From Candidatus Omnitrophota bacterium (GTDB lineage: Bacteria > Omnitrophota > Gorgyraeia > Gygaellales > Profunditerraquicolaceae), in assembly GCA_041648875.1 (NCBI GenBank), contig JBAZOE010000001.1, positions 1 through 34,214 of the forward strand: 34,214 nucleotides of DNA, given 5' to 3'. The notes below the pieces were generated by a model. It was not told where the DNA came from and ran no database searches. It saw only the letters and a program-made list of their open reading frames with translations. Below, in pieces: positions 14,198 through 34,195 of this stretch (positions are counted from its first letter, which is position 1; each line of letters begins with the position of its first letter). A program made the translations under genes and the position numbers.

Positions 14198-15257
14198 ATT
14201 TTAACCTCAATTGCCCGCAGGCGGCATTTATATCCCGGCCGCGCTCTTTTCTTAATGTAACATTAAGTCCGGCTTTAAACAAATAGTCCTTAAACGAGAG
14301 CACCTCTGTTTCAGAGGGCGGAATAATTTTAGATTTGGGGGTTGGATTAACCGGGATCAGGTTAACCTTAGCTAACCTTAAATTCTTTAAAAGCGCGGCC
14401 AGTTTTTGCGCAGAAGACAAATCAGAATTCAGGTCCCTGGCTAAAATATACTCAAAGGTAATCTGGCGGTTTGTCTTCTCAATATACTCCTGGCAGCATT
14501 TAATTAAATCCCCTAAAGGATACTTCCGGTTAACCGGCATTATTCTTGAACGCAGCTTATCATCGGCAGTATGCAAAGATATGGAAAGCTCCACCTGCAG
14601 ATCTTCCTCCTGCAGCCTTTTTATGCCCGGGATAACCCCGCAGGTAGAGATGGTAATGCGCCTGGCGCCGATATTAAAAGCATCGGCAGAATTAATTATC
14701 CTGATAGCCTTTAAAAGGTTATCGTAATTATCCAGCGGTTCGCCTGTGCCCATAAATACAATATGGTTAAGCTGGGCATCCCTCAGGTTATTCTTTAAAT
14801 AAAGCACCTCATCCAAAATCTCGCCGCTGGTCAAATTGCGTTTAAATCCTTTAAATCCGCTTGCGCAAAACTCACAGCCAAATTTACATCCTGCCTGCGA
14901 GGAGATGCATCCGGTAACTGCGCAACGGCGCGCAACGGCCTCTCCGCTAAGGCCGGGTGCCCGCCTGGCCATAGGGATATTCACCGCCTCAATCAAGTTG
15001 CCGTCATTTAACTCAAACAGGAATTTAACTGTACCATCAACAGATTCTTTTAGATCCGCCAGGCTTAAGCCCAAAACATAGAATTCATCCGCCAGGATTT
15101 GCCTTAAGGCCGCCGGTAAATCGCTCATACTGTTAAATTCATATGAACCCTTCTGATAAATCCAGGCGAATATCTGTCTGGCATGATATTTAGGTTTCCC
15201 TAAGGAAAGCAATTTTTCTTCCAGTCCCCTTAAACTTAATTCTTTAATGTCTTGCAT
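14184..15257 (-). CDS. rlmN: 23S rRNA/tRNA (adenine-C2)-methyltransferase RlmN, radical SAM
   Basis: 357 aa. Radical SAM motif CKFGCEFCASG, GTGEPL motif, and a C-terminal conserved Cys (NAACGQL). N-terminal YHARQIFAWIY is typical of RlmN. Confidence 0.9.
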   Translation of the reverse strand: MQDIKELSLRGLEEKLLSLGKPKYHARQIFAWIYQKGSYEFNSMSDLPAALRQILADEFYVLGLSLADLKESVDGTVKFLFELNDGNLIEAVNIPMARRAPGLSGEAVARRCAVTGCISSQAGCKFGCEFCASGFKGFKRNLTSGEILDEVLYLKNNLRDAQLNHIVFMGTGEPLDNYDNLLKAIRIINSADAFNIGARRITISTCGVIPGIKRLQEEDLQVELSISLHTADDKLRSRIMPVNRKYPLGDLIKCCQEYIEKTNRQITFEYILARDLNSDLSSAQKLAALLKNLRLAKVNLIPVNPTPKSKIIPPSETEVLSFKDYLFKAGLNVTLRKERGRDINAACGQLRLKYEQD

Positions 15258-15266
15258 GATGGTATT

Positions 15267-16805
15267 TCAGGAGCGGATTCTAAGCTTTTCTTTATCAATC
15301 TTACCGGTGCGGTTCTTGGGAAGCTCTGCGCAAAATTCAAAATAATGCGGGATCTTAAAATGCGCCAGGTGTTGGCGTAAGAAAAATCGCAAATCCTCCT
15401 CCGGGATACCCCTGCCTTCTTTAGCCACTAAAAAAGCCTTTGGTAACTCTCCCCGCAGTTTATCAGATACCCCTACTACCGCGGCTTCTGCAATATCCGG
15501 ATGCCTCAATAAAACCGACTCTACCTCCGGCTCAAAAACAATCTCACCGCCAACCTTAATCATCTCTTTCTTCCTGCCGACAATATAAAGAAAACCTTCC
15601 GCGTCAAACCTGCCCAGGTCTCCTGTATAAAACCAGCCATTACGGATAGTCTGACGAGTCAATCCTTCGTCTTTAAAATAACCGTCGGTAACCACCCAGC
15701 TTTTTACCACAACCTCGCCGACTTGTCCTATAGGCAATTCTTTCTCGGCATCATTTCCGCCGCAGGCGGATCCGCCTTCGGCGGAAAAAACTTTTACTTC
15801 AATCCAGGGAGCCGGCCTGCCTACGCTCTCTATGTTCTTAGAGCCCATAGGCAAAACTACTGTCGGAGCATTTGTCTCGGTTAAACCCCAGCCGTTTAAA
15901 AGATTGGCCTTAGGGCAAAACTGATGGAACCTGCGCAGGGCATCCGGAGAACTCGATGCCCCAAAAGTAACAATCCAACGCAAGCTGGATAAATCAAAGG
16001 TTTCAAACTCCTTTAGTTGCAGCAGCGCGTAATACATCGAGGGCACAATCCAGAAAAAATTAATTTTATAATTCTGCACATTCCTTAAGAAATCCAGGGG
16101 CATAAAACGTTCCATCAACACGAGGCTTAGCCCAAAAGTAATTGCATTCTGGATATAGATTAAGCCGCCTAAGTGAGAAAAGGGCAGGGCGCAAAGAGCG
16201 GTATCTTTGAAACTTAAATCAGCATTCACAAAAAAAGCCATTGATTTTGGAGGAGCATCCAGCTGGAGATAATTAATTAAAACGCCTTTTGGTTTACCGG
16301 TTGTACCGGAGGTATAAAAGATTATGGCGTAATCTTTTTCCCTGACCGCTGAATCAGGAGCACTGATTGAGCTCTCTGCCAATAACTCTTCAAAGTTTAA
16401 GGCCTCCTTCTCTTTTAAACGACAAGAGATAATATGCTTTAATGAAGGCAAACTTTGCTTAAGAAGGGAAAGCGAAATGTTGGCTTTGTGTTTAGTGATA
16501 AGAATCTTGGCTTCGCAATGGCTAAGACAAGAAACTATCTCGTCTTCGGTAAGCATAAAATCCAAAGGTACGCCGCAGGCGCCGATGGACCAGACAGCCA
16601 GATAGCTGTAAACATATTCCGGCCAATTAGGAAGATAAATAGCAACCTTATCCCCGCGTTTTACTCCAAGCTTAAGCAGGCCCTGGGCAAGAGAAAAGAC
16701 TTTATCTTTGAGCCCGGCAAAAGAAACCTGCTCTTGGCCAAAAATAAGTGCCGGCTTTTGCGCATATTCTTTTGCGCGCTTCTTTAAAATATCAACTATA
16801 TCCAT
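15267..16805 (-). CDS. AMP-forming acyl-CoA ligase (ANL superfamily, medium/long-chain type)
   Basis: 512 aa. AMP-binding motif YTSGTTGKPKGV, plus GWGLTET, YTGDLG and the C-terminal catalytic Lys region (NRTGKIDK). Its start overlaps the ALDH stop (TAATG). Confidence 0.85.
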   Translation of the reverse strand: MDIVDILKKRAKEYAQKPALIFGQEQVSFAGLKDKVFSLAQGLLKLGVKRGDKVAIYLPNWPEYVYSYLAVWSIGACGVPLDFMLTEDEIVSCLSHCEAKILITKHKANISLSLLKQSLPSLKHIISCRLKEKEALNFEELLAESSISAPDSAVREKDYAIIFYTSGTTGKPKGVLINYLQLDAPPKSMAFFVNADLSFKDTALCALPFSHLGGLIYIQNAITFGLSLVLMERFMPLDFLRNVQNYKINFFWIVPSMYYALLQLKEFETFDLSSLRWIVTFGASSSPDALRRFHQFCPKANLLNGWGLTETNAPTVVLPMGSKNIESVGRPAPWIEVKVFSAEGGSACGGNDAEKELPIGQVGEVVVKSWVVTDGYFKDEGLTRQTIRNGWFYTGDLGRFDAEGFLYIVGRKKEMIKVGGEIVFEPEVESVLLRHPDIAEAAVVGVSDKLRGELPKAFLVAKEGRGIPEEDLRFFLRQHLAHFKIPHYFEFCAELPKNRTGKIDKEKLRIRS

Positions 16806-18292
16806 TAGAATCCATACCAGTAATTGACCAGCGGCTTGCCTTCGTTTGATTGATCTAATATTACATTTTTCAGCCGGCTATACTCCAGAAACCCCTCCCT
16901 GCCTAATTCTTTACCAAAGCCGCTCTGCTTAAACCCTCCGTAAGGAAGCTGGTTATAAAACATGCCGTAAGTATTAATCCAGACAATACCGGCATTTATT
17001 TTTTTAGCTAATTCCTGCGCCAGGGATAAATCTTTGCTCCAGATACAGGCAGCCAAACCAAAATCTACGCTATTGGCTAAAATTACAGCCTCATCAGAAC
17101 CTGAAAATTTATTAATTAAAACTACCGGGCCAAACACCTCTTCTTTAAATATATGCGAGTGCGCATTCACATCAACTAAAACCGTGGGCTCAAAGAAATA
17201 ACCATTTTTTAAATCCGCGCCTTCCGGAATCCTGCCGCCGCAGACAAGTTTAGCGCCTTCGGCTTTTGCTTTTTCGATATAGGCTATCACCTTTTTGCGC
17301 TGCGCGTCATTGATCAATGGCCCCATCTGGGTTTCAAAATCATCCGCTAAGCCCAGCTTTATACGCTTTGCCTTTTCTACAAAATCAGCGAGAAACTTAT
17401 CGTAAATACTTTCCTGCACGAAAATCCGGGACATAGCCGTGCACATCTGCCCCTGATTCAGGAAAATGGAGGCCAAAGAGCTGTTCACCGCCACCCCCAC
17501 ATCAACATCATCAAATACAAGGCTGGCAGATTTGCCCCCCAATTCCATAATCACCTTCTTCACGTTCCTTGAAGAATATTGCAGGATCTGTTTACCCGTC
17601 TCATTGCTGCCGGTAAAAGAAATCATATCCACGCGCTTATCCACGCAAAGCTCTTCCCCTATTTTTGAACCGCTGCCGTTAACAATGTTCACTACTCCGG
17701 CAGGAAGGCCGGCGGCATGGATAATCTTGCCCAGCTCTAAAGCAGTAACCGGAGTCATACTGGAAGGTTTTAGAATAACCGTGTTGCCGCAAGCTAAAGC
17801 CGAAGCAAGTTTCCAGCAGGTAATTAAAAGCGGATAATTCCAGGGTACGATTAATACTACCACGCCCATGGGCTCACGGATTAAACGCGACTTCGCATCC
17901 TCGGAAACACTTAACTCTTCATTCGTCAAATAACTCATAAAATTATTAGCCGCAAACTCAAAAGTCTTGGCACTGGAGGGGATATCCATAAAAGTAGTTT
18001 CTTTAATGGGCTTACCTGTATTTTGTGTTTCTAACTGCGCTAAAGCGGCGGCGTTATCCAGGATGCCCTGGGCAATCTTAAAAATAAAATCTTTCCGTTG
18101 CAGCAGGGAAAATTGCGTCCAGGGCCCGGAATCAAAGGCCTGTCTTGCTCCTGCCAAAGCCAGGCCCGTTTCTTTTAACGAGGCCAGCGATGCTTCGGCA
18201 ATTACCTTACCCGTGGAAGGATTGATAATATTCTGCTTTTCCGAAGTCTCAATAAACTGGCCATTTATATAGAGCAGATATTTTAAACTCAT
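16805..18292 (-). CDS. NAD(P)-dependent aldehyde dehydrogenase
   Basis: 495 aa. Motifs PWNYPL, catalytic Glu in MELGGKS, catalytic Cys in NQGQMCTAMSR. ATGA overlap with the upstream aldolase gene. Confidence 0.9.
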   Translation of the reverse strand: MSLKYLLYINGQFIETSEKQNIINPSTGKVIAEASLASLKETGLALAGARQAFDSGPWTQFSLLQRKDFIFKIAQGILDNAAALAQLETQNTGKPIKETTFMDIPSSAKTFEFAANNFMSYLTNEELSVSEDAKSRLIREPMGVVVLIVPWNYPLLITCWKLASALACGNTVILKPSSMTPVTALELGKIIHAAGLPAGVVNIVNGSGSKIGEELCVDKRVDMISFTGSNETGKQILQYSSRNVKKVIMELGGKSASLVFDDVDVGVAVNSSLASIFLNQGQMCTAMSRIFVQESIYDKFLADFVEKAKRIKLGLADDFETQMGPLINDAQRKKVIAYIEKAKAEGAKLVCGGRIPEGADLKNGYFFEPTVLVDVNAHSHIFKEEVFGPVVLINKFSGSDEAVILANSVDFGLAACIWSKDLSLAQELAKKINAGIVWINTYGMFYNQLPYGGFKQSGFGKELGREGFLEYSRLKNVILDQSNEGKPLVNYWYGF

Positions 18293-19284
18293 TTTACCTT
18301 TACTGCTTTAAATAAAGCGAACAAACGCGTAAAAGGGACGTACCACTTGGAAAGCTGGCCTAATTGGCCGCTTAACTTCATTTTACCCTGTGTAACTGCC
18401 ACAAAACAATCCAACTTCCCTAAAAACACCTGCTCCCAAACAGGAGCCGGCGCCGATATTACAAACGGCGCATCAGCGTCAAAATCCAATTTTACGATTC
18501 TCCCTTTTTCAAAATTAAATTTAAAAACCTCGGCACGCTCATCCATCCGGATAGCCAGTTTCAAAGTCAAATCCAACTCTTTCCCCTTTTGGCCGATAAA
18601 TTCATCACGATTAACCAAATCCACGATTGCTTGGATATGCTCCCGGCTAAACATATTATAAGCTGGCTCGTTGCGTTTCAAATCCTCCCTTAAGGCAACA
18701 TCTAAGCTATCAAGAATATCTTTATCGAACAAACGGGCGCATGCGGCGCTCTTAACCGCTTCTTCCAAAGCCTCAGTAATGCTTAAGGCATCTTCAAACT
18801 TATCCGCAACCGCTATTGTGCCGTGGTTTTTTAAAACCACCAGGTTGTTTATCTTTAAGGCGGCGATAACCGGCTCAGGCAAAGTTACCGTCGGAGTCTC
18901 CTGGGGGATTACGGGGATATCTCCAAGATAAAACTTAGTTTCAAAGCTCATCGCTTTTAGTGTTTTGGCAACCGCAAAATACCCATTAATTAACGGCGGG
19001 TGACAATGAATAACTACTTTGGCGGGAAAGTATTTATAGACCAGGCTATGCAAAGACAACTCCGAACTTGGTTTAACTCCAGCGCTAAACTTTGCGCTGG
19101 CTAAACTTACCTTAACAATATCCTCTTCTTTAATCTGGCCCAGGAATGTACCGCTGGCGGTAATCAGGATATTTTCTTCATCGAGCCTGGCGCTCAAATT
19201 ACCGGATTTAGCTACTGCCAGGCCGGCGGAATAAACGCGCCTGCCGGTTTCAATAATCTCAAGTTTCAAATCTTTCTCGGACAT
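18289..19284 (-). CDS. class II aldolase/adducin-domain protein fused to a C-terminal SCP2-like domain (MTRu-1-P / 5-deoxyribulose-1-P aldolase or dehydratase candidate)
   Basis: The N-terminal ~195 aa carry class II aldolase motifs (SGNLSAR, ITASGTF, VIHCHPP, LKNHGTIAV). The C-terminal ~105 aa resemble SCP2 (FVISAPAPVWEQVFLGKLD...GKMKLSGQLGQL). Confidence 0.7.
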   Translation of the reverse strand: MSEKDLKLEIIETGRRVYSAGLAVAKSGNLSARLDEENILITASGTFLGQIKEEDIVKVSLASAKFSAGVKPSSELSLHSLVYKYFPAKVVIHCHPPLINGYFAVAKTLKAMSFETKFYLGDIPVIPQETPTVTLPEPVIAALKINNLVVLKNHGTIAVADKFEDALSITEALEEAVKSAACARLFDKDILDSLDVALREDLKRNEPAYNMFSREHIQAIVDLVNRDEFIGQKGKELDLTLKLAIRMDERAEVFKFNFEKGRIVKLDFDADAPFVISAPAPVWEQVFLGKLDCFVAVTQGKMKLSGQLGQLSKWYVPFTRLFALFKAVKVK

Positions 19285-19286
19285 GC

Positions 19287-20204
19287 TCAGACTCCCAAAT
19301 AAATATGCCTGGTAATTAAATTTGCCGGCGTAACATCAAAAGCCGGATAATACGCCTTGACCTCTTTCGGGGCAAGTAATAAACCCTGATAGGTCTTAAG
19401 CTCGCTATCCGGGCGTATCTCGATCTTGATTTCTTTACCGCTTTTTAATTTTGACGCAGGAGGACATAAAACATAGAAAGGAACCTTAAAATATCTTGCC
19501 ACCACCGCGATCTGATAGGTCCCGATCTTATTGGCAATATCCCCGTTTTGGGTTAAATGGTCTGCGCCTACAATTACCTTAGTCACCTTCTTTAAAGATA
19601 ACAAATAAGCCACCATATTATCGGTAATAATCGTTACCGGGATTTTCGCACGCATAAGCTCCCAGGCGGTTAAACGCGAACCCTGTAGATATGGCCGGGT
19701 CTCGGTAACATAGAAACTTATCTTTTTCCCCTGCTGTTTAGCGAATTCGGCGATCAATGGCATTGACCCGCTGACATTGCAATGCGTAAGAATTACATCC
19801 CCGTCTTTTAACAGCTTAGCCATATCCTTAGCCTGTTTTAGGCGGGCAGTTTTAAGCGCCTCCAGGAAACCTAAAATACTTTTTTCTAACGGTGCCTTTC
19901 CTTTATCCCAACTCAGAACCATATCTGTTAAGACTTTGAACGCCAGTGTCGGACGCGTGGCATTAATGGCTTTGGCCACCTTAATTAAATTAACATTCTG
20001 CCGCTTACTTAAAATAAAAGTATACATCACCAAAAGTACCTGGCCCACAGCGCGGGTTTTCATCTCCTTGATGGCCTTAGCTGCCTCCAGGTAATTTCTC
20101 GCCTTTATACAAACTTCCTTTTGCGGCAGCTTAGTTTCATCAAGGATGTAAATAACGTTGCCTTTTAACTGAATCGACCAAAAAAGCGGCGAAAATCTCA
20201 TCAT
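19287..20204 (-). CDS. mtnA: S-methyl-5-thioribose-1-phosphate isomerase-like protein (MtnA / eIF-2B family)
   Basis: 305 aa. Motifs ILTHCNVSGS (catalytic Cys context), TETRPYLQGSRLTAWEL, VGADHLTQNGDIANKIGTYQIA (catalytic Asp context). The N-terminus is shorter and more divergent than canonical MtnA. Confidence 0.7.
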   Translation of the reverse strand: MMRFSPLFWSIQLKGNVIYILDETKLPQKEVCIKARNYLEAAKAIKEMKTRAVGQVLLVMYTFILSKRQNVNLIKVAKAINATRPTLAFKVLTDMVLSWDKGKAPLEKSILGFLEALKTARLKQAKDMAKLLKDGDVILTHCNVSGSMPLIAEFAKQQGKKISFYVTETRPYLQGSRLTAWELMRAKIPVTIITDNMVAYLLSLKKVTKVIVGADHLTQNGDIANKIGTYQIAVVARYFKVPFYVLCPPASKLKSGKEIKIEIRPDSELKTYQGLLLAPKEVKAYYPAFDVTPANLITRHIYLGV

Positions 20205-20207
20205 AGA

Positions 20208-20957
20208 TTATTTGCCTTCCATTTTCTTGACCGCCTCCAGGGCAATCTTAATCAGGTTGCTTTCCGCCATATAATAAAGCGGGTTCATAAAACCCATCTC
20301 TCCTGTGACCACATTATCGCTGACCGCAAGTATTGAACCAGCCTTGATCTTATATGTTTGACAAATAGTTAGCAGGGTTGAGGAAACCATATCTACCGCC
20401 CGAGCCCCCTCCTTACGTTTAGTTTCCACAATCTGGCGAGTTTCACGCAATAATGCGTCAGTTGTCCAGGCCTTTCCGCGATGGACATTTAAGCCCATAC
20501 CCTTAGCAATCTCAAATAACAAATCAGATATGCCCTTATTGCTGAGAGTCTTAAAATCCTTATCCACATAATAAGGAGTAACCCCGTCCCCGCGGATAAC
20601 CTCATCCACTATGAACAAATCCCCCACCTTAATATTCTCATCAAGTGAGCCGCAAGTGCCTACACGGATGATGTTCGGAATCCCGGCATTGCACATCACC
20701 TCTGTGGTAATAGAGGTATCCGTAGAAAATCTGCCTCCGTTTATCGCGGTTACCTTAATCCCCTCAAAGGTGCCGGTATACATGGTATATTCCATGAACG
20801 AGAAATTCTTTACGGGATTTTCGATCTTCTTCATCAATGCTTCCAGGCGATCCCTTGGCCCGGGAACAATGGCATATTTACCCACATCCTGCGGCCTAAG
20901 CTGCACCATATCCGTTAAATCTTTACCTGTTAAATGAACATCCTTCTGCATCTGCAT
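20208..20957 (-). CDS. nucleoside phosphorylase, PNP/UDP_1 family (MTA / 5'-deoxyadenosine phosphorylase candidate)
   Basis: 249 aa with a DeoD/Udp-like layout (VPGPRDR..., IRVGTCGSL, AVDMVSSTL). Lies immediately upstream of the MtnA-like gene (3-nt gap). Confidence 0.65.
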   Translation of the reverse strand: MQMQKDVHLTGKDLTDMVQLRPQDVGKYAIVPGPRDRLEALMKKIENPVKNFSFMEYTMYTGTFEGIKVTAINGGRFSTDTSITTEVMCNAGIPNIIRVGTCGSLDENIKVGDLFIVDEVIRGDGVTPYYVDKDFKTLSNKGISDLLFEIAKGMGLNVHRGKAWTTDALLRETRQIVETKRKEGARAVDMVSSTLLTICQTYKIKAGSILAVSDNVVTGEMGFMNPLYYMAESNLIKIALEAVKKMEGK

Positions 20958-20979: not shown

Positions 20980-21309
20980 TTAAGCCCGGTACATAATCAC
21001 GTTTGCTTTCTCAAGGGTAATCAACCCCTCTTTAACCATGGCATCGAGTTGCGGAATAAACTGATTAATCTTTTCTTCGCTATCCACAATTTCAATAACA
21101 ATCGGCAAATCCTCCGATAACCTCAATAGTTTAGCGGTATGCATATGGCTTTTACAGCCAAACCCCATAAAACCCTTTATTGCGGTAGCTCCGGCCATTC
21201 CGCTTTTCTTGGCCAAAAGGACAATCTCTTCATAAAGCGGTTTTCCATTCCATTTATCCGCCTCGCCGATAAAAATCCTTAAAAGCTTGCCATCTGCGGG
21301 AATTTTCAT
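20980..21309 (-). CDS. DUF190 domain protein (PII-like, CrcB-associated)
   Basis: 109 aa. LLRIFIGEADKWNGKPLYEEIV...GATAIKGFMGFG is typical of DUF190. 4-nt overlap with crcB. Confidence 0.8.
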   Translation of the reverse strand: MKIPADGKLLRIFIGEADKWNGKPLYEEIVLLAKKSGMAGATAIKGFMGFGCKSHMHTAKLLRLSEDLPIVIEIVDSEEKINQFIPQLDAMVKEGLITLEKANVIMYRA

Positions 21310-21686
21310 ATTAGCTCTCCTATAAAAGTACCTGCCCTAAATAAAACAAAACCCAATATTACGCTGGCAAAAATATTAACAGAAGCCCGTATTGCCTGGC
21401 CACTCCTGACTAAATTATCAGTCTCGAATATCAAAGTTGAGAATGTAGTAAATGCCCCGCAAAAACCGATCATCAACAACAGGCGCGCATCCGGGCTAAA
21501 CATGAATTTCTTATCCGATAAAGAAACCAAAAATCCCAGGATAAAACAACCGCTGATATTTACGATCAGCGTTCCATATGGAAAACTTGTTCCCATTATC
21601 CGGTAAACTGCCCCGGCCAGAAAATACCTGGCAATCGTCCCTGCCGCGCCTCCAATAATCAAATTAATTAATTTTATCATAGCCAA
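21306..21686 (-). CDS. crcB: fluoride channel CrcB/FluC
   Basis: 126 aa with four TM helices and motifs GGAAGTIARY and GFCGAFTTFSTL. Confidence 0.9.
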   Translation of the reverse strand: MAMIKLINLIIGGAAGTIARYFLAGAVYRIMGTSFPYGTLIVNISGCFILGFLVSLSDKKFMFSPDARLLLMIGFCGAFTTFSTLIFETDNLVRSGQAIRASVNIFASVILGFVLFRAGTFIGELI

Positions 21687-21689
21687 ATT

Positions 21690-22019
21690 CTACGGCGAAA
21701 TTGCTCCCTGCCCCGATAGATAAGAGATCACAAAAAAACTCGCTATTCTCGCCCAACAAAAAAGGCTTAACAATAAAAAAAATATCTTCGGGAACCCTTC
21801 AAAAGCAAAAATACAGGCCGCGGTCCCAATAGCGAATATTACCGTAAAGACTGTGAAGAGCACGCTGTTAAGCCCCGGCGGGTTAAGAAACCGCAAAACG
21901 GAATATAGAATCGAATCTTCATTCTTTAAATTTACCCACCCGTCAAAGTCTACCGCGAAGACAAAACCTGAGCTGAATAAAAAGATGATTAAAAACAACA
22001 CCAAAGTTTTATTCCACAT
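21690..22019 (-). CDS. small membrane protein, unknown function
   Basis: 109 aa with an N-terminal hydrophobic signal-like segment plus two further TM helices. 3-nt gap to crcB. No family recognised. Confidence 0.5.
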   Translation of the reverse strand: MWNKTLVLFLIIFLFSSGFVFAVDFDGWVNLKNEDSILYSVLRFLNPPGLNSVLFTVFTVIFAIGTAACIFAFEGFPKIFFLLLSLFCWARIASFFVISYLSGQGAISP

Positions 22020-27581: not shown

Positions 27582-29042
27582 TTATATCTGCACTTCACCC
27601 TTTGTCGCGGCCGCTTCCCATTTATTAATACCATTCATGACATCCTGGAAACAAAGCTTTGCAAGCGGGTCAAAATTACTCTCCATAATACGGTTAATTC
27701 TGCCGGGCTTTGAAAAAAACTCACGCATACACCATGAACCCAGCCTACCCAGATCTTCCGTAGAGAGATGATCGGTAGGGATTACCGGATGTAAGAAATC
27801 CCATTGGCTAAAATCCACCTCTTTGGGATCCATCCAGTGTTTTTTTAATGCAATCCTCCACATAGGTGAATTCGGGGCAGGGGTAACATAACCTACCCAC
27901 AGGACATCCGGATCCACCTGATCAGTGAACTCAAAACGCTGTTTGATAATTTCTTCGGTATCATAATCAAAACCCATCATGATATCGGCAACGATAGCGA
28001 TATCATTCTTACGGAACATCTCAATGGTCTTTTTGATCTGATCAATAGTAATGCCCTTGGCAATTCTCTTAAGCTCCGACTGCGTGGTAACCTCAATGCC
28101 GAAAACACCCATAAACAAACCGTTTTCTTTCATAAAGGGGAGGATTGATTCACAATTGACCCAATCAATAGCGCGGCCTAAAGATACCCATTTAATCGGA
28201 TTATTGGATGCCTTTTTAAGTTCGCAGAATTTCTGCACTCTTTTAGGGTCTACATTAAAATTATCATCCTGGATAACTACAACCTTAACCCCATATTTTC
28301 TATGCAGAAGGTTCAATTCTTCCATTACCCTTTCCGGAGACTTTGCCCGCCATTTCAAAAAATCCGATGGTGAGCGTGGGTCAAATTGGTCCCATTCATA
28401 ACAAAAGGTACACGCTGAAGGGCAACCGCGGGATGTAACCATATCTACAAACGGCTTCCAATAAGTATGCCCTACATATTTATCCATCGGGAATAAATCA
28501 TACGCCGGCAAAGGCAGTTTATCCAGATCTTCCATAAGAGGCTTATGCGGCCCCATAACAATTGCGCCATCAATGCGGGAAGTGACCCCGCCTACATCCT
28601 TAAGCGGTTTGTTCTTATCTATTGCCTCAACTAAATCCCCGAAAGACTCCTCTTCACCCATAACTACAAAATCAACTGCGGGATTCTCCTCCAGTGTAGG
28701 CACAGGCATCGCCGAATACCATAATCCACCGAGGATTATTTTTGTCTTAGGCAAAGCTTTCTTAATCCCGATAGCCGCCTCTTTAAAATGACGTAAAACT
28801 CCATAGCCGCCGTAACCATGCAGTTGCTCACCCATGACCACGATATCAGGATTTTTAAGCTTAACTTGTTCGATCAACTGCTCCATAGGTATTTGATCGG
28901 CCTTGCCGTCGATAACAGCTACATCTTCATAGCCTCTTTCGCGTACATACGCTGCCCAATGCGCGTAAAGCTGGTTTGGAGATCTATGTATTCCATGAGT
29001 TGCCCAGGCTCCGACTTTCGGCATAACAAACAATATCCTCAT
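27582..29042 (-). CDS. B12-binding-domain radical SAM enzyme (class B)
   Basis: N-terminal Rossmann-like cobalamin-binding domain (RILFVMP...DIVVMGE...KIILGG). Radical SAM motif SRGCPSACTFCYE. I prefer ATG at 29042 (MRILFV), preceded by AAGGAGAGG, over the GTG at 29063 in the ORF track. Confidence 0.85.
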   Translation of the reverse strand: MRILFVMPKVGAWATHGIHRSPNQLYAHWAAYVRERGYEDVAVIDGKADQIPMEQLIEQVKLKNPDIVVMGEQLHGYGGYGVLRHFKEAAIGIKKALPKTKIILGGLWYSAMPVPTLEENPAVDFVVMGEEESFGDLVEAIDKNKPLKDVGGVTSRIDGAIVMGPHKPLMEDLDKLPLPAYDLFPMDKYVGHTYWKPFVDMVTSRGCPSACTFCYEWDQFDPRSPSDFLKWRAKSPERVMEELNLLHRKYGVKVVVIQDDNFNVDPKRVQKFCELKKASNNPIKWVSLGRAIDWVNCESILPFMKENGLFMGVFGIEVTTQSELKRIAKGITIDQIKKTIEMFRKNDIAIVADIMMGFDYDTEEIIKQRFEFTDQVDPDVLWVGYVTPAPNSPMWRIALKKHWMDPKEVDFSQWDFLHPVIPTDHLSTEDLGRLGSWCMREFFSKPGRINRIMESNFDPLAKLCFQDVMNGINKWEAAATKGEVQI

Positions 29043-29082
29043 TTCCTCTCCTTTTTTAACCACTTAACTAGATTTTATTTTC

Positions 29083-29111: not shown

Positions 29112-30341
29112 TTATGGTTTTTCAACTACCAAAGCTGAATTAATACCACCACGTCCGCGTGAGATAATCAAAGCTTTATTTACTTTACATTCCCTGGCCT
29201 GCTTAGCCACATAATTTATATCATTTAAAACCGGAGTATCCAGATTTAATGTAGGTGGAATCAGGCTATGCTCCATAGACAAAAGCGCGATAATCATATC
29301 CAGCGCGCCGCTTGCCCCCAACAGGTTACCGAACATGGATTTCGGGCAGCTTGCCGGAATATTTTTCAGGGCATCTCCAAAAACCAGCTTTAAGGCCTTA
29401 ATTTCAGAGTCGTCCCAAAGATCAACCGCAAGCCCATCCAGGCTGATGTAACCGATTTCTTCAGGCTTGGCTTTAGCGTCATTAAAAGCCATATTTATAG
29501 CCCGGGCCAATTCCTTGCCGTCGGCAGCAGGATTAATCCTATCCACTCCGTCGCAACTTGTGCCGTATCCGCTGACATAGCCTAAAATGTTTGCCCCCCT
29601 ATCCTTAGCCCTCTGAATGTTCTCCAACACCACAATACCTGAACCCTCGCCAATAACAAAACCACTGCGGCCTTTGTCAAATGGCCTATATGCAGCCTGA
29701 GGGTCTTCATTGCGCGTAGAAAGCGCCCCGTATGTATTGCAGCATAATAATGCATAAGGAGTAACCGGCGCCTCCATCCCTCCGGCTAAGATCATATTCA
29801 ATTTGTTTTTATATAAAACTTTCCTGGCATACCCTAATGCCATAAGCGAACTTGCCCGGTCGCTGACCACGGTTTTACTAAAACCTTTTATACCGTAATA
29901 GATAGATACCTGGCCCTGAGGGGCAGCGGGAAACCAGGCAGAAGCCATATAAGGGGAAACACCCTCCCTGCCTTCTAAATACAAGTCCCTTAACTCTGTT
30001 TCGGCATAAAGCCAGCCGCCAATGGCATTACCCAAGAAAATACCGACGAGGTTCGGATCTTCATTTTTTATATCTATGCCCGCATCCTGCAAGGCAAGCT
30101 CTGAAGCAACCAGCGCCATATGCGAAAAGGCGTCAATTTTCTTGAGCAGTCTTTCGGATATGTGGCTGTATTTTTCCAGGTCGTCAATCTGCCCTGCTAT
30201 ATGCGCAGGGTATTTTGAAGCATCAAAGCGCGTGATCTTTTTAATAAATGAACGACCGCTTTTAATATTTGCCCAAAACTGCCGTTTACCGATGCCTGAC
30301 GGGCTGACTACCCCTATCCCTGTAACTGCTATCTTTTCCAT
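29112..30341 (-). CDS. ketosynthase-beta / chain-length-factor-like protein lacking the Cys-His-His triad
   Basis: 409 aa, collinear with the upstream KS. At the KS positions C (TGCTAG), H (NAHGSS) and H (IGHPL) it reads R (SDRASS), D (SLDGLA) and N (FGNLL). TAATG coupling with the KS-alpha gene. Confidence 0.8.
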   Translation of the reverse strand: MEKIAVTGIGVVSPSGIGKRQFWANIKSGRSFIKKITRFDASKYPAHIAGQIDDLEKYSHISERLLKKIDAFSHMALVASELALQDAGIDIKNEDPNLVGIFLGNAIGGWLYAETELRDLYLEGREGVSPYMASAWFPAAPQGQVSIYYGIKGFSKTVVSDRASSLMALGYARKVLYKNKLNMILAGGMEAPVTPYALLCCNTYGALSTRNEDPQAAYRPFDKGRSGFVIGEGSGIVVLENIQRAKDRGANILGYVSGYGTSCDGVDRINPAADGKELARAINMAFNDAKAKPEEIGYISLDGLAVDLWDDSEIKALKLVFGDALKNIPASCPKSMFGNLLGASGALDMIIALLSMEHSLIPPTLNLDTPVLNDINYVAKQARECKVNKALIISRGRGGINSALVVEKP

Positions 30342-31603
30342 TATCCACCGAACCTTTTTAAAATTAGCGAGGAGTGTATCCCGGAGAAACCGCTGCTGGT
30401 TTTAATAATCATATTCACTTTTTTCTCGATTGCCTGATTGGGAATATAATACAAGTCGCACTGCGGATCTTTTTCCTCCTGGTTTATTGTAGGAGGAAGG
30501 ATATTTTTTTCAAAGATCATGCTGGCGATGGTCATCTCAATAGCGTTTGCCGCAGCCAAAGGATGGCCGATCATGGATTTAAATGAACTGATGGGCAGCT
30601 TATAAGCGTACTCCCCAAAAATCGCCTTATAAGCATTGCTCTCAAAAATATCATTCATACGCGTGCTTGAACCATGGGCATTGATATAATCAATATCCGC
30701 CGGTTTGACATTAGCATCTTTTAATGCCAGGCCGATACAGGTTTCCATGGCTTGTCCGTCGGAGGGAAGATCAGTCATATGAAAGGCATTGCAGCTGGTG
30801 CCAAAGCCTAAGACCTCGCAATAAATCGGCGCGTTACGTTTTAAGGCATGATTTAATTCTTCCAAAACCAAGATGCCCGCCCCCTCCCCCAATACAAACC
30901 CATCCCGCTTATTGTCAAATGGCCGGGATGCTTTTTGCGGCTCATCATTATGCACAGATAAAACATTCACCACATCAAAAGCGCCAAAGGTAATCGGAGT
31001 AAGCGGCGCCTCCGCCGCACCGCAAATCATTACATCCTGTTCGCCGTCCTGGATAGTCTCCAGGCCAAACCCCAGGGAATCCGTGCCGGCAGTGCATCCC
31101 GTAGAAATAGTATTGCAAATTCCTTTTAAACCGAAACGCGCGCTGATTTCTATTGAAGGAGTATTAAACATCGCCGCGTCATAAAGATCAGGCCGCACCA
31201 GTGACGGGTCAATTGGTTTCTTGCCGTCTTCAGTAACTAAGGCAAACTCTTCCTCCATATATTTAGTACCACAGATAGCGTTTGCCAGGCAAACCCCCAA
31301 GCGCTCAGGGTCTTCTTTTGATAAATTCAACTTGCTGTCTTCAATTGCCATTTTGCCGGCGGCTACCCCAAACTGAACATAACGGTCCATGCGCATAGCT
31401 TCTTTATGGTTCAAGCCCAGTTTAAAAGGGTCAAAATCACTGACCTGAGAGGCAATCTTGGTGTTAAAAACCGACACATCAAAACCTTCAACTAAGCGTA
31501 CTCCGGATTTTCCGCCTGAAAACCCCTCCCAAGCGTTTTTTTTACCTATGCCGTTAGGAGAGATTACCCCTATGCCGGTAATAACCACTCTGCGTTTAGA
31601 CAT
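30341..31603 (-). CDS. beta-ketoacyl-ACP synthase, KS-alpha type (FabF/type II PKS-like), catalytically intact
   Basis: 420 aa. N-terminus RRVVITGIGVISPNG, active-site Cys in STGCTAGTDS, His in INAHGSSTRMND, and His in SMIGHPLAAA. Confidence 0.85.
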   Translation of the reverse strand: MSKRRVVITGIGVISPNGIGKKNAWEGFSGGKSGVRLVEGFDVSVFNTKIASQVSDFDPFKLGLNHKEAMRMDRYVQFGVAAGKMAIEDSKLNLSKEDPERLGVCLANAICGTKYMEEEFALVTEDGKKPIDPSLVRPDLYDAAMFNTPSIEISARFGLKGICNTISTGCTAGTDSLGFGLETIQDGEQDVMICGAAEAPLTPITFGAFDVVNVLSVHNDEPQKASRPFDNKRDGFVLGEGAGILVLEELNHALKRNAPIYCEVLGFGTSCNAFHMTDLPSDGQAMETCIGLALKDANVKPADIDYINAHGSSTRMNDIFESNAYKAIFGEYAYKLPISSFKSMIGHPLAAANAIEMTIASMIFEKNILPPTINQEEKDPQCDLYYIPNQAIEKKVNMIIKTSSGFSGIHSSLILKRFGG

Positions 31604-31606
31604 GAA

Positions 31607-32212
31607 TTATTTATTCTCCTCTATTCTTCTAACCTTGAAAATAATATTCCCGCCGTCAGGACAGGTAACCGTATCAATAGAATCAGGATTGTCCATGAAG
31701 AAAAATTTCGCCCCGAAGTTCAGGGCAAATAATGCCGGGAATGCCGTATGGAATGCCGCCCCGCAAAAACCAGGGATGCATTTTAAACCTTGAGTCTCCC
31801 ATTTATCGCCAACCTTATACCCGAAGCTGCATTTACCGGATGCCCCGACTACCTCAATAATCATCTTTTTAGGATTCGGGCCTTTATGTTCCGGGTCGCG
31901 GGGGACAACATCCAGCTTTCCTGTCTTATCCAAGATCTCAGCTTTAAACTCCAGTTTACCTCCGTCAGGGCAAGTAACTAAAAGCGAACGCTGGTTGTCG
32001 CGGAACCCGAATTGCGCCCCAAAACTCAAGGCATATATGACCGGGAAAAGCGCGTGCGCCAATCCTAAGCAAAAATACTGAGGCGCGTGGGTAAAATCCT
32101 CGAGATAAATTTCATCTCCAATCTTATACCCATGGTAACATTCACCAAAAACCTGCGTAACCGTAAGTTTTAGTTTTGGAAATGGAGTATTTACCTTGCT
32201 ATTTTGGCTCAT
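31607..32212 (-). CDS. tandem-duplicated TIGR04076-like protein (two ~90-aa Cys/His-containing modules)
   Basis: 201 aa. The halves align: G.C..GYK.GD...FC...H..FP...AL.FGA.F.F.DN..S...VTCPDGG...FK. The module resembles my memory of the uncharacterised TIGR04076 family. ATGA overlap with the upstream gene. Confidence 0.55.
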   Translation of the reverse strand: MSQNSKVNTPFPKLKLTVTQVFGECYHGYKIGDEIYLEDFTHAPQYFCLGLAHALFPVIYALSFGAQFGFRDNQRSLLVTCPDGGKLEFKAEILDKTGKLDVVPRDPEHKGPNPKKMIIEVVGASGKCSFGYKVGDKWETQGLKCIPGFCGAAFHTAFPALFALNFGAKFFFMDNPDSIDTVTCPDGGNIIFKVRRIEENK

Positions 32213-33222
32213 TTTAACTGGACAACTTCTTGGATTTTCTCAAACATTTCAAGTTTGCTATAAAACCTGTTATTCTTCTCAACCTGGTGCACTAAATCAA
32301 CCAAAGCGCTATTTAACGGCGCGCAAACATTGTTCTTTTCGGCAAGGCGCATGAATTCACCGTTAATATAATCAATCTCGGAGCTGCGGCCGCGCATAAT
32401 GCTTTGCAGGACAGAGCCGTAAAGCGGCTCCTTGCTTAGGTTTTTCATGGTTTGCGAGAAAATAGCAGCTGCTTGAGCGGCTGGCAAAGAAACTAATTTG
32501 GTAATGTTTTCCAAGGGAAAACCCGGCAAAGAAACTAATTTTATACCTGCCTTATCAATAACCTCAAGAGCTTCTTTCCAGATAGCAATGCTTATCCGGC
32601 TTATATCCAGATCGCTAAAAACCTCCTGCATGCTTTTGCCCAATATCGCCGGCAGACAGTTATTGGCATTAGCGAATATTTTTAAAAACTTCATACCGGT
32701 AATATTCTCGGCAACTACAACAGGGAATGCCTTGCCTAAAACATGGCTTAGGCTTAATAATTTCTCCGGCCCTTGCTTATCAAAAGGCCAGCCTATTATC
32801 CAGGACCCCTCAAAATTATGCACTAACTTGGCCGGCTCTAAATAAGTAGAGCCGAACATAACAATACTAGATACTATGTTTTCCCTGGGCAGGTATTTAG
32901 CAACAATATGATCCGCCTGCACGCCATTTTGGATAGTTAAGATTACCGCGTTGCGAACCAAACTGATATTATCTTTTATGGCATATTCGATATCCTGGGT
33001 TTTAGTGGCCAGGATAACTAATTCCGGGAAATAATTAAGCTGCTCGGAAATCTTAATTTCAACCTTAAAGCTACCCCGGGCCCCCGTTATTTGCAGCCCT
33101 TTTTCCCGGATCGCCTTTACCGAATCCGTCCGGCCGACCAAAGATACATCCTGACCCTCTAATTTAAGATAGGCTGCCACAAGGCAGCCAATCGCCCCTG
33201 ATCCAATAACCCCTATACGCAT
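32209..33222 (-). CDS. 2-dehydropantoate 2-reductase family (ApbA/PanE-like) NAD(P)-dependent oxidoreductase
   Basis: 337 aa. N-terminal MRIGVIGSGAIGCLVAAYL Rossmann motif. C-terminal domain with SVLQSIMRGRSSEIDYINGEF, typical of the KPR family. Confidence 0.75.
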   Translation of the reverse strand: MRIGVIGSGAIGCLVAAYLKLEGQDVSLVGRTDSVKAIREKGLQITGARGSFKVEIKISEQLNYFPELVILATKTQDIEYAIKDNISLVRNAVILTIQNGVQADHIVAKYLPRENIVSSIVMFGSTYLEPAKLVHNFEGSWIIGWPFDKQGPEKLLSLSHVLGKAFPVVVAENITGMKFLKIFANANNCLPAILGKSMQEVFSDLDISRISIAIWKEALEVIDKAGIKLVSLPGFPLENITKLVSLPAAQAAAIFSQTMKNLSKEPLYGSVLQSIMRGRSSEIDYINGEFMRLAEKNNVCAPLNSALVDLVHQVEKNNRFYSKLEMFEKIQEVVQLK

Positions 33223-33224
33223 AG

Positions 33225-33491
33225 TTAACTCTGATTTTTCGGAAAACCGTATTTCTTGTAATCAAAGCCGCTTTGCTCCAAAAGACGGACCATCATGCCG
33301 TAAAAAGGCGAAGGTACGTCGGAAAAAAAAGCGGCAATTACATCCTGCTCTTCAACCTGGGTGGATTTACGTAAAAGCGCGTTATTTTGCGCCTGTTGCA
33401 CAACCACTGATTCGGTAATCCGGCGGTGAAATACAGGAATCCTGGATATCAACGCCTTAAACTTCTCTTCGGTTTTAGTTTCCCAGATCAT
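33225..33491 (-). CDS. small PCP_red-like (protochlorophyllide reductase subunit B C-terminal-like, PF08369) domain protein
   Basis: 88 aa. W-x2-x-EEKFKALISRIPVFHRRITESVV...QVEEQDV resembles the W..eAe..l..iP.FvR pattern of PF08369. First gene after the promoter. Confidence 0.45.
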   Translation of the reverse strand: MIWETKTEEKFKALISRIPVFHRRITESVVVQQAQNNALLRKSTQVEEQDVIAAFFSDVPSPFYGMMVRLLEQSGFDYKKYGFPKNQS

Positions 33492-33539
33492 TAGCTAACC
33501 TCATTAATAATAGAAAGCTGAATTTAAAACATAAACCCT

Positions 33540-33563
33540 AATATAGTAAAATTTTACTATATT
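33540..33563. promoter_or_regulatory. 24-bp perfect palindrome, candidate operator (PadR?)
   Basis: AATATAGTAAAATTTTACTATATT equals its own reverse complement. It starts 10 nt downstream of the -10 hexamer of the cluster promoter. Confidence 0.6.
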
Positions 33564-33573
33564 TTGTTTTATT

Positions 33574-33602
33574 ATTTTATTATTTAAGAATGCCCTTGTC
33601 AA
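33574..33602 (-). promoter_or_regulatory. near-consensus sigma70 promoter of the PKS-like operon
   Basis: Minus strand TTGACA (33602-33597), exact 17-nt spacer, TAAAAT (33579-33574). Located in the 188-nt gap between padR and the first cluster gene. Confidence 0.65.
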
Positions 33603-33679
33603 GTAAGAAATCAAGCACCTTATAGCTTTTATCCAGCGCAGTCCTTGATCGAGCGATAGCGAGATCGAGGATAAAGGAT

Positions 33680-34195
33680 TTAAATTTCCTTAAGCAACGT
33701 ACTAAGAAACTCCGACTCTGCCTGAAGCAGGCAAAGATTGTGCTCAAGTATTCGCAATAAAGAGATTGAATTCTTAAGCTTCTTGGCTTTAAGCGTCTCT
33801 TCTATGCTAGAGGATATCTTCTTTAATATTGTAAGCCTGGCAGCCAGTCTGCGCCGGCTTAAGGCGGGCTTTAAATAATCAAGGAAATAGAGGCTTAAGT
33901 CTAAGCTGAATTGCGGACGCTTAAAATTAAGCAGGCTTTTATTCAACAGCTCGTCAAAACGGGCCTTACCTTTTTTAGTAAGGCTGTAGACAAACCGCTC
34001 CGGCCTCTTTCCTTCTTTGCCGACATACTTGTCAAGCAAGCCTTTTTTTTCTAAAACTTTTAAGGGATAATATATTGATTTTAAATCAACGCCGGCAAAA
34101 AGTGAGAGGATCTGCCGTATCCTGATTTTAATTTCATAACCGTGTTTGGGGCTTTGGCGCAATAAACCTAATAACAAAAACTCCTGTTCAATCAT
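33680..34195 (-). CDS. PadR-family transcriptional regulator
   Basis: 171 aa. N-terminal winged-helix pattern LLGLLRQSPKHGYEIK...YYPLKVLEKKGLL...VYSLTKKGKARF, with a C-terminal helical extension. Confidence 0.85.
   Translation of the reverse strand: MIEQEFLLLGLLRQSPKHGYEIKIRIRQILSLFAGVDLKSIYYPLKVLEKKGLLDKYVGKEGKRPERFVYSLTKKGKARFDELLNKSLLNFKRPQFSLDLSLYFLDYLKPALSRRRLAARLTILKKISSSIEETLKAKKLKNSISLLRILEHNLCLLQAESEFLSTLLKEI

Follow-up and report, generated by a model that had tools for sequence, protein, structure and literature searches.

Gene content of the locus

The window analysed here comprises the first 34,214 nucleotides (34 kb) of contig JBAZOE010000001.1 from a Candidatus Omnitrophota bacterium (assembly GCA_041648875.1), the source genome being a metagenome-assembled genome (MAG) of 1.22 Mb in 132 contigs that is 73.6% complete. 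Our subject is a run of five genes in this window, which encode a nucleoside phosphorylase, an MtnA-like isomerase, a class II aldolase, an aldehyde dehydrogenase (ALDH) and a ligase of the ANL family (Table 1). A preliminary description of this DNA had proposed that the five gene products form a route resembling the dihydroxyacetone phosphate (DHAP) shunt, by which 5′-methylthioadenosine (MTA) as well as 5′-deoxyadenosine (5′-dAdo) is salvaged.

The order of the five genes, their minus-strand orientation and their four junctions were all confirmed by open reading frame (ORF), Pfam and sequence checks. In gene order, the junctions are TAA-TCT-ATG (a 3-nt gap), TGA-GC-ATG (a 2-nt gap) and then two overlaps, ATGA and TAATG. 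This tight spacing is real, but spacing alone is weak evidence of coupling because all genes of the window lie co-directionally on the minus strand in one tightly packed array. The real evidence of coupling is the conserved and rearranged synteny described below. A scan of 13-28 kb for transcription signals was uninformative: promoter-like sites were about as frequent as in shuffled sequence, and those resembling terminators showed a modest excess (24 vs. 16.9, sd 3.5). The three radical S-adenosylmethionine (SAM) genes reported for the window are likewise present; one of them encodes a B12-binding radical SAM enzyme (B12-rSAM), and another is rlmN.

Table 1. Positions of the five cluster genes and of other features in the window.
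Feature	Position	Strand	Remarks
Cluster-specific nucleoside phosphorylase paralogue (PNP_UDP_1)	20208..20957	-	249 aa; PF01048, 114 bits
MtnA-like (IF-2B) aldose-1-phosphate/ketose-1-phosphate isomerase paralogue	19287..20204	-	305 aa; PF01008, 201 bits
Class II (Zn) aldolase::SCP2 fusion	18289..19284	-	331 aa; PF00596, 122 bits
Aldolase subdomain of the fusion	~18715-19284	-	
SCP2 subdomain of the fusion	~18292-18672	-	
Non-acylating NAD(P)+ aldehyde dehydrogenase	16805..18292	-	495 aa; PF00171, 550 bits
ANL-family acyl-CoA (or acyl-carrier) ligase	15267..16805	-	512 aa; AMP-binding and AMP-binding_C
B12-binding radical SAM enzyme	27582..29063	-	context partner; B12-binding and Radical_SAM domains
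Operon head: PadR, PanE-like reductase, TIGR04076 protein, ketosynthase (KS) and KS-beta pair	29112..34195	-	
CrcB fluoride exporter and DUF190	20980..21686	-	variable insertion, outside the module
rlmN (radical SAM)	14184-15257	-	directly after the ANL gene
Further radical SAM gene	3301-4425		domain search
109-aa ORF	21690-22019		upstream of crcB
760-aa protein	368-2650		spermidine/spermine synthase domain

The enzymes of the cluster

The third protein had been labelled a class II aldolase-fold protein, which is right and incomplete, because the protein is a fusion with a C-terminal SCP2 domain. In its aldolase part, N29, E75, H93, H95 and H154 are invariant among 19 sequences, down to 33% identity, and correspond to N29, E73, H92, H94 and H155 of FucA, a numbering that was verified on named FucA mutant structures. 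The family profile scored 84-94 bits against FucA-type aldolases and 80 bits over the full domain against DrdA (6BTD), the 5-deoxyribulose-1-phosphate aldolase, compared with 25 bits against human MtnB (4M6R), where only the N-terminal part was matched; the Aquifex protein aq_1979 was matched over the N-terminal half. The MtnB models PRK09220 (78 bits, residues 4-97) and TIGR03328 (67 bits) matched the fusion protein partially and below cut-off. An AlphaFold2 model of the fusion (pLDDT 87) matches YgbL (6VOQ), FucA-type aldolase, a Thermus thermophilus aldolase and DrdA (6BTD/6BTG) at TMt values of 0.77-0.84, with DrdA at 0.80. As the preliminary description had expected, the protein does not group with MtnB, and it is predicted to behave as an aldolase and not as an MtnB dehydratase.

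The SCP2 domain occupies residues ~205 to 331 of the fusion. PF02036 was matched by 25 of 26 diverse fusion members, with a best E of 8e-9, and the window's own domain scored 21.9 bits against a cut-off of 21.3. A separate AlphaFold2 model of the domain (pLDDT 92.6) matches the T. thermophilus SCP2 protein 2CX7 at a TM of 0.82 and a root-mean-square deviation of 2.3 Å, and further matches are UbiJ-SCP2, the SCP2 domain of MFE-2 and the C-terminal domains of alkylsulfatases. Judged from profiles and the predicted structure, the fused domain is a genuine SCP2 lipid-carrier fold.

The phosphorylase belongs to the hexameric NP-I group. Its top NCBIfam models are those of uridine phosphorylase and DeoD, all far below cut-off; TIGR01718 gave 114 bits against a cut-off of 280, HpnG and futalosine hydrolase models matched weakly and also far below cut-off, and TIGR01694, the model of methylthioadenosine phosphorylase (MTAP), did not match the cluster phosphorylase. 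In an alignment to the uridine phosphorylases of Escherichia coli and Streptococcus pyogenes, the insert that carries the uracil-binding Gln166 and Arg168 is deleted, and S213-D214-N215, at the site of the purine-protonating Asp of DeoD-type enzymes, is invariant in 80 orthologues. The two observations argue against a canonical uridine phosphorylase. The phosphate ligands R37, R98 and T/S101 are retained in the family, the inter-subunit Arg48 is replaced by Met (M55), and the ribose-binding Glu-Met-Glu has become an invariant Asp-Met-Val. The S. pyogenes alignment had also placed Met17 at the position of the His that binds the 5′-OH; this replacement was withdrawn, since the family alignment has an invariant His8, in a DV-HL motif that resembles E. 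coli uridine phosphorylase. On these residues, the enzyme is a purine-type phosphorylase-like protein with an unusual sugar site. It shares 23% identity over 132 residues with the MTAP of its own genome, and the two are essentially unrelated.

The isomerase has both catalytic residues of MtnA, the Cys in THCN and the Asp in GAD, and exceeds the cut-off of only the subfamily model TIGR00524. It scored 228 bits against a cut-off of 279 with TIGR00512, 241 against 271 with a second MtnA equivalog model and 133 against 314 with TIGR00511, the model of ribose-1,5-bisphosphate isomerase. Two deletions are conserved in its paralogue family, one of the RGAP motif and one of 8 residues right after the catalytic Cys, and it is 36% identical to the canonical MtnA of the same genome.

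The ALDH has the catalytic residues Glu250 (ELGGK) and Cys284 (GQMC). Its closest solved structures are betaine/aminoaldehyde and phenylacetaldehyde dehydrogenases, and it scored below every equivalog cut-off. In the ANL protein, the TSGTTGKPKG motif is present, as is the motif of the catalytic Lys at the C-terminus, and the highest scores were obtained with models of medium/long-chain, MenE-like and 4CL-like ligases. It has a Gly at the position equivalent to a pocket residue of acetyl-CoA synthetase (Acs), which we take to be the Trp that limits the acetate pocket. The ligase is thus predicted to be of the medium/long-chain or aryl type and not an acetate ligase. Acetyl-CoA or methylthioacetyl-CoA, which had been put forward as the products of the ALDH and the ligase, are possible and less likely.

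Housekeeping salvage genes in the same genome

The remaining genes of methionine salvage were searched for in the source MAG and in four related genomes of 1.5-1.9 Mb. Across these five genomes, acireductone dioxygenase (PF03079) and RuBisCO-like protein (PF00016) gave no match at E ≤ 0.001, and enolase-phosphatase (TIGR01691) gave none over its cut-off and nothing beyond a 20-bit HAD-type match. Profile searches of the window proteins bore out the reported absence of MtnC, MtnD, MtnW and MtnX from the window. The refuting case named in the preliminary description, an aldolase-fold protein that clusters with MtnB alongside the remaining salvage genes elsewhere, thus does not hold for these five genomes. 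Each relative has two IF-2B genes, two PNP_UDP_1 genes only and exactly one class II aldolase, and no Pfs-type nucleosidase was seen among them. In the source genome, too, the fused aldolase is the sole class II aldolase.

A canonical MtnA of 357 aa (427 bits vs. a cut-off of 271) is encoded at C25:375-1445 of the source genome, and a canonical MTAP, cut by the contig end, at C51:7883-8596; both are unlinked to the cluster. The former belongs to a gene row that also contains thiL, an Npun_F2552-family gene, tatD and metG; the latter adjoins ileS. Because these canonical enzymes are encoded elsewhere and have low identity to the cluster enzymes, the cluster, on this comparison, carries specialised paralogues and not housekeeping enzymes. 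A general role in the salvage of MTA and 5′-dAdo is therefore not upheld. What stands of the DHAP-shunt reading is the order of the enzymes and the type of the aldolase, which fit; the housekeeping role does not. As a separate observation, this organism probably generates MTA through the 760-aa protein, which has a spermidine/spermine synthase domain.

Conservation and rearrangement of the operon

Synteny was compared in a close set of 80 loci, in which the aldolase is 61-92% identical, and in distant families, in which it is 35-45% identical. With PNP standing for the phosphorylase gene, the close loci have the order KS, KS, B12-rSAM, cyclase, SRPBCC, (MFS), SDR, (CBM11-like), hyp137, Amidohydro_2, (crcB, DUF190), followed by PNP, isomerase, aldolase::SCP2, ALDH, ANL, rlmN and GDSL. 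Four operon architectures were distinguished. Type 1, that of the window, reads PadR, PanE, TIGR04076, KS, KS, B12-rSAM and, after further genes, PNP, isomerase, aldolase::SCP2, ALDH and ANL. Type 2 reads PadR, ANL, PNP, isomerase, (small ORF), aldolase::SCP2, ALDH, B12-rSAM, PanE, TIGR04076, KS, KS, cyclase and SRPBCC. Type 3 begins with ANL, PNP, PanE, TIGR04076, KS and KS, reaches SDR and B12-rSAM after further genes, and continues with Amidohydro_2', a class IV aminotransferase, isomerase, (small ORF), aldolase::SCP2 and ALDH. Type 4 has no ketosynthase and consists of PadR, ANL, B12-rSAM, PNP, isomerase, (small ORF), aldolase::SCP2, ALDH and an MMPL-family exporter.

The ANL gene is found in all four architectures, adjoining PNP or at the operon head. 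In the rearranged operons, among them those that lack a polyketide synthase (PKS), the B12-rSAM gene has its place next to genes of the module or between them; in one genome, it stands between the isomerase and the aldolase. That the set is retained through rearranged gene orders strongly indicates that the B12-rSAM enzyme and the products of all five genes work together. The ALDH and the ligase, which the preliminary description had added to the shunt enzymes, are true members of the unit by the same token, being kept through the four operon rearrangements. Usually, the module is a fixed part of a PadR-controlled B12-rSAM/type II PKS operon. Among NCBIfam models, the B12-rSAM enzyme scored highest with BchE (211 bits) and HpnJ (157 bits), and in both cases fell far short of the cut-off.

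The adjacency of rlmN, which had been pointed out, is local synteny only: rlmN is not adjacent in the distant type 2 and type 3 operons and lies within ~6 kb in the PKS-less loci. The crcB/DUF190 pair is present at the phosphorylase junction in only ~20 of the 80 close loci, and the rearranged operons lack it. The window has DUF190, crcB, the orphan ORF of 109 aa and an Amidohydro_2 gene upstream of the phosphorylase gene; the orphan has no Pfam or NCBIfam match and is kept in a few close relatives only.

The ALDH gene directly follows the aldolase gene in most loci examined, and several loci have an insert or no ALDH. About ten close loci (L048, L050, L054, L057, L058, L064-L066, L074 and L076) have 2-5 kb between ALDH and ANL, and the annotated inserts (L048, L054 and L058) are unrelated genes, namely a PlsC-like acyltransferase, PurU-like, DUF748, HSP20 and DUF362; in L068 and L080, ANL is missing and rlmN follows ALDH. 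The small ORF of the distant families, of ~155 aa, lies between isomerase and aldolase (L091:10525-11013, L103:9035-9511 and L113:10511-10966); one of three resembles half an IF-2B fold weakly (PF01008, 33 bits), and the ORF is absent in the window. In type 3 (L103:6427-8146; also L051, L053 and L056), a divergent Amidohydro_2 gene and the class IV aminotransferase gene, which is BCAT/ADC-lyase-like, directly precede the isomerase gene. Replacement of the phosphorylase by the aminotransferase in this subclade was considered and rejected, since a whole-genome search located the phosphorylase gene at the operon head, to which it and ANL have moved together. One family has a DeoC/LacD-type class I aldolase gene after ALDH and a SAM methyltransferase gene beside the isomerase gene (L100:7160-8023 and L100:11473-12096). 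In the PKS-less operons, the exporter after ALDH is an MMPL-family protein of 794 aa with a sterol-sensing-like domain (L113:5690-8074), which suggests a lipid-like product.

Distribution and loss of the SCP2 fusion

The distribution of the module was examined in 401 Omnitrophota genomes, which are related to one another, so that the counts are descriptive and do not amount to a statistical test. The fused aldolase occurs in 132 of the 401 genomes. The phosphorylase paralogue occurs in 133, 127 of which also have the fused aldolase, and the ketosynthase orthologue KS420 in 122, of which 118 have it. An unfused orthologue of the aldolase, of ~200 aa, was found in 15 genomes; none of the 15 has the ketosynthase and one has the phosphorylase paralogue. 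Five of the unfused-aldolase genomes belong to the window's own family and are 93-96% complete, and they have one canonical MtnA, one MTAP-type gene and no paralogue pair; in this family, the unfused aldolase gene adjoins rlmN-GDSL in all four loci examined. A scan with the family alignment of 185,579 species genomes found 304 relatives, and the best 80 of the 304 are all from Omnitrophota.

In the aldolase-domain tree, unfused proteins fall inside clades of fused ones at a minimum of four places (families f1, f28, f30 and f33). Read from this tree, the SCP2 domain was lost along with the cluster in at least four independent lineages. The unfused aldolases retain all catalytic residues and differ at residue 131, which is Pro in 106 of 106 fused aldolases and Val, Leu or Ile in seven of eight unfused ones. 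P131 aligns at or beside Phe131 of FucA, and Phe114, which is invariant in the fused type, aligns with FucA Tyr113; both FucA residues belong to the aldehyde-side pocket (mutant structures 1DZW and 1DZZ). Because the unfused forms are cluster-less and changed at P131, both the presence of SCP2 and the form of the aldehyde pocket, as read from the alignment, go with the cluster, and the bare aldolase can persist without it. In three cluster-less genomes (G330:C28:36260-36901, G336:C19:10478-11104 and G301:C42:3777-4406), the aldolase match contains one in-frame TAA; these matches extend up to query residues 209-215, and the TAA is consistent with decay of a former linker/SCP2 part.

Of the 401 genomes, 346 have a canonical MtnA that passes the equivalog cut-off, and MTAP is reported to be common in the main Omnitrophota class (preprint 10.64898/2026.06.07.730766). 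Because MtnA-bearing genomes far outnumber those with any orthologue of this aldolase, MtnA in the phylum is independent of it. The idea that the aldolase core serves a housekeeping MTAP/MtnA shunt is weakened accordingly, most of the 346 genomes having no aldolase orthologue. MtnA is thus near-universal, yet most genomes are without a known downstream enzyme for methylthioribulose-1-phosphate (aldolase, MtnB, RuBisCO-like protein or acireductone dioxygenase).

Proposed function and alternatives

The evidence used here is derived from sequence: the gene set, residues, paralogy, SCP2 fold and co-inheritance were computed, and from these we infer every reaction and substrate. We propose that these genes make up a derivative of the DHAP shunt that is dedicated to the cluster and would act on a non-canonical and probably hydrophobic 5′-substituted adenosine from a B12-rSAM step; the chances of this reading seem to us about even. 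The phosphorylase paralogue would remove the purine base (adenine) from a 5′-substituted 5′-deoxyadenosine by phosphorolysis, and the MtnA-like paralogue would turn the resulting ribose-1-phosphate derivative into the ribulose-1-phosphate derivative. The Zn aldolase would then cleave this product into DHAP and an aldehyde that contains C4′, C5′ and the 5′ substituent, the ALDH would oxidise the aldehyde to the acid, and the ANL ligase would activate the acid as a thioester. The substrate would most likely be a nucleoside made by the co-travelling B12-rSAM enzyme; the part of it that is not sugar, probably bulky or hydrophobic, would be held by the SCP2 domain of the fusion protein.

Housekeeping MTA is an improbable substrate because canonical MTAP and MtnA are encoded elsewhere. 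Service to a B12-rSAM/polyketide pathway is suggested by the paralogy of the first two enzymes, the SCP2 fusion, the changed pocket and the type of the ligase. Moreover, the MMPL exporter in the minimal operon and the strict co-inheritance with B12-rSAM/PKS point in the same direction.

Several considerations weigh against this proposal. The evidence comes from one phylum whose genomes are not independent, and the synteny among close relatives partly reflects shared ancestry. SCP2 domains may also serve as structural or docking modules, the invariant H8 of the phosphorylase may still bind a 5′-OH, and the B12-rSAM enzyme resembles BchE and HpnJ only weakly by profile. Finally, plain recycling of 5′-dAdo, a by-product of radical SAM enzymes, explains the co-travel with less novelty.

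According to this last alternative, 5′-dAdo, and perhaps MTA, from the B12-rSAM enzyme of the operon and from other radical SAM enzymes would be converted into adenine, DHAP and acetaldehyde or (methylthio)acetaldehyde, and the aldehyde into acetyl-CoA or methylthioacetyl-CoA, and regulation shared with the radical SAM enzyme would serve to lift product inhibition. It is the simpler reading, the enzyme order being that of the MtnP-type DHAP shunt (PMC10986504), and it agrees with a module that is always accompanied by a radical SAM enzyme and with the four relatives in which no Pfs-type nucleosidase was seen. However, the same genomes already have canonical MTAP and MtnA, the ligase is without acetate-ligase features, and an MMPL lipid exporter follows the ALDH gene in the PKS-less operons. 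The SCP2 fusion, its repeated loss with the cluster and the remodelled pocket residue P131 are also left unexplained. We therefore regard disposal of the by-product as rather unlikely, while a serious contender.

A more specific proposal within the DHAP-shunt derivative favoured here concerns the substrate, and we consider it doubtful. In the manner of MqnE and HpnH, the B12-rSAM enzyme would attach a 5′-deoxyadenosyl group to a lipid or polyketide intermediate, and the module would trim the adduct to a two-carbon extension: adenine would be phosphorolysed off, C1′-C3′ would leave as DHAP, and the formylmethyl group would become a carboxymethyl group and then a thioester, with the SCP2 domain holding the hydrophobic part during cleavage. 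This reading is without direct support because of the weak likeness of the B12-rSAM enzyme to BchE and HpnJ. If true, it would represent a new anaerobic two-carbon homologation with the adenosyl group of SAM as a building block, and an adenosylated lipid or polyketide as substrate would mean a novel way of drawing carbon from SAM.

Ordinary catabolism of the ribose of purine nucleosides appears very unlikely. Ribose-1-phosphate would be converted into ribulose-1-phosphate, DHAP and glycolaldehyde, the latter being oxidised to glycolate and activated as glycolyl-CoA. Such a route would parallel the haloarchaeal non-carboxylating pentose bisphosphate pathway but need neither kinase nor phosphatase. 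The phosphorylase is indeed closest to the DeoD and uridine phosphorylase types, its possible 5′-OH-binding residue H8 is invariant, and NF053831, the model of the haloarchaeal ribulose-1-phosphate aldolase, matched the aldolase weakly. This match, however, at 61 bits, is far under the cut-off of 300, the isomerase is nearer to MtnA than to ribose-1,5-bisphosphate isomerase (241 vs. 133 bits), and the ribose-binding Glu of the phosphorylase has become an invariant Val. Neither the SCP2 domain nor the strict linkage with B12-rSAM/PKS would be explained.

The opposite, biosynthetic direction seems to us a little less probable still. Class II aldolases can run in reverse, as can purine nucleoside phosphorylases; the aldolase could condense DHAP with a polyketide- or lipid-derived aldehyde, and the isomerase and phosphorylase could turn the result into a lipid-linked ribose-1-phosphate or nucleoside, a product that the SCP2 domain and the exporters would fit. 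However, the gene right after that of the aldolase encodes a non-acylating ALDH, which would use up the aldehyde, and there is no reductase to make the aldehyde from the product of the ligase; the gene content follows a catabolic logic.

The first steps of universal methionine salvage, with the aldolase-fold protein as the MtnB dehydratase, have been largely refuted and are highly improbable: the matches to PRK09220, TIGR03328 and, over the N-terminal half, Aquifex aq_1979 would favour them, but the model scores are under cut-off with partial coverage, human MtnB scored 25 bits, and acireductone dioxygenase, enolase-phosphatase and RuBisCO-like protein were not found in the five genomes. A pathway like that of fluoroacetate or a chloro-metabolite, in which a halogenated 5′-deoxyadenosine is processed as in Streptomyces cattleya and CrcB/DUF190 handle fluoride, has a negligible probability, for despite the shared enzyme order of the fl/nob pathway (PMC3999930) and the position of crcB and DUF190 directly upstream of the phosphorylase gene, the fluorine link is effectively refuted by the lack of a fluorinase family gene (PF01887 was not found in the source MAG and occurs in only three of 60 high-quality family genomes), by the lack of a fluoride riboswitch at the crcB/DUF190 locus and by the variability of the insertion.

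The comparisons indicate that an enzyme set of the DHAP-shunt type has been duplicated, remodelled by the SCP2 fusion and in the pocket and the isomerase loops, and wired into a radical SAM/polyketide pathway. The module thus offers a concrete example, open to testing, of how enzymes of salvage can be drawn into secondary or lipid metabolism. The Omnitrophota are widespread, mostly uncultured bacteria with small genomes, and about one third of the 401 genomes keep the operon, which is conserved more strongly than rlmN.

Comparison with known systems

The DHAP shunt consists of MtnP, MtnA and Ald2 in Rhodospirillum rubrum and Rhodopseudomonas palustris and of Pfs, MtnK, MtnA and Ald2 in extraintestinal pathogenic E. 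coli (PMC10986504). The module resembles it in the removal of the base to yield a ribose-1-phosphate derivative, in the IF-2B isomerase and in the class II aldolase that would produce DHAP and an aldehyde, and the downstream genes of universal methionine salvage were not found in the five genomes. It differs in that its phosphorylase is a hexameric DeoD/uridine phosphorylase-like paralogue and not an MTAP-type MtnP, its isomerase, a paralogue too, is shortened and has changed loops at the active site, and its aldolase is fused to SCP2. In addition, the ALDH and ANL ligase are fixed members, and the module is embedded in a B12-rSAM/type II PKS operon while canonical MTAP and MtnA lie elsewhere.

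With the Bacillus 5-deoxyribose pathway (DrdK, DrdI and DrdA), the module shares the class II aldolase fold and, as predicted, the DHAP-forming cleavage. In contrast, that pathway starts from the free sugar via a kinase and an isomerase of a different family, and it has no SCP2 domain, no ALDH or ANL ligase and no link to a biosynthetic operon, all of which the module has. Unlike the haloarchaeal non-carboxylating pentose bisphosphate pathway, the module contains no kinase or phosphatase gene.

In the futalosine route to menaquinone (MqnE/MqnB) and in the synthesis of the hopanoid side chain (HpnH/HpnG), a radical SAM enzyme adds a 5′-deoxyadenosyl group to a hydrophobic substrate, and MqnB and HpnG are PNP_UDP_1-family enzymes that remove the base afterwards. 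The likeness of the module to these systems is weak, consisting of matches of the phosphorylase to HpnG and futalosine hydrolase and of the radical SAM enzyme to HpnJ, each far under its cut-off, and enzymes of the MqnE or HpnH type are absent. We know of no description of the trimming of an adenosyl adduct by an isomerase and an aldolase. The chloroethylmalonyl-CoA pathway of salinosporamide (SalL/SalT) converts a SAM-derived 5′-deoxynucleoside into a polyketide building block via a phosphorylase; it differs in the dehydrogenase, dehydratase, decarboxylase and crotonyl-CoA carboxylase/reductase that follow and in its need for a chlorinase. A search of the literature did not find a PKS cluster that contains an MtnA-like gene.

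The fluoroacetate pathway of S. cattleya and Nocardia brasiliensis comprises FlA, FlB, an isomerase, an aldolase and fluoroacetaldehyde dehydrogenase (PMC3999930). Its FlB is MTAP-like, it has neither an SCP2 domain nor a CoA ligase, and the genome of the module is without a fluorinase/chlorinase homologue. The order of phosphorylase, MtnA-like isomerase, aldolase and aldehyde dehydrogenase is nevertheless identical in the two, and the fluoroacetate pathway acts on a SAM-derived 5′-substituted 5′-deoxyadenosine for biosynthesis, as we propose for the module.

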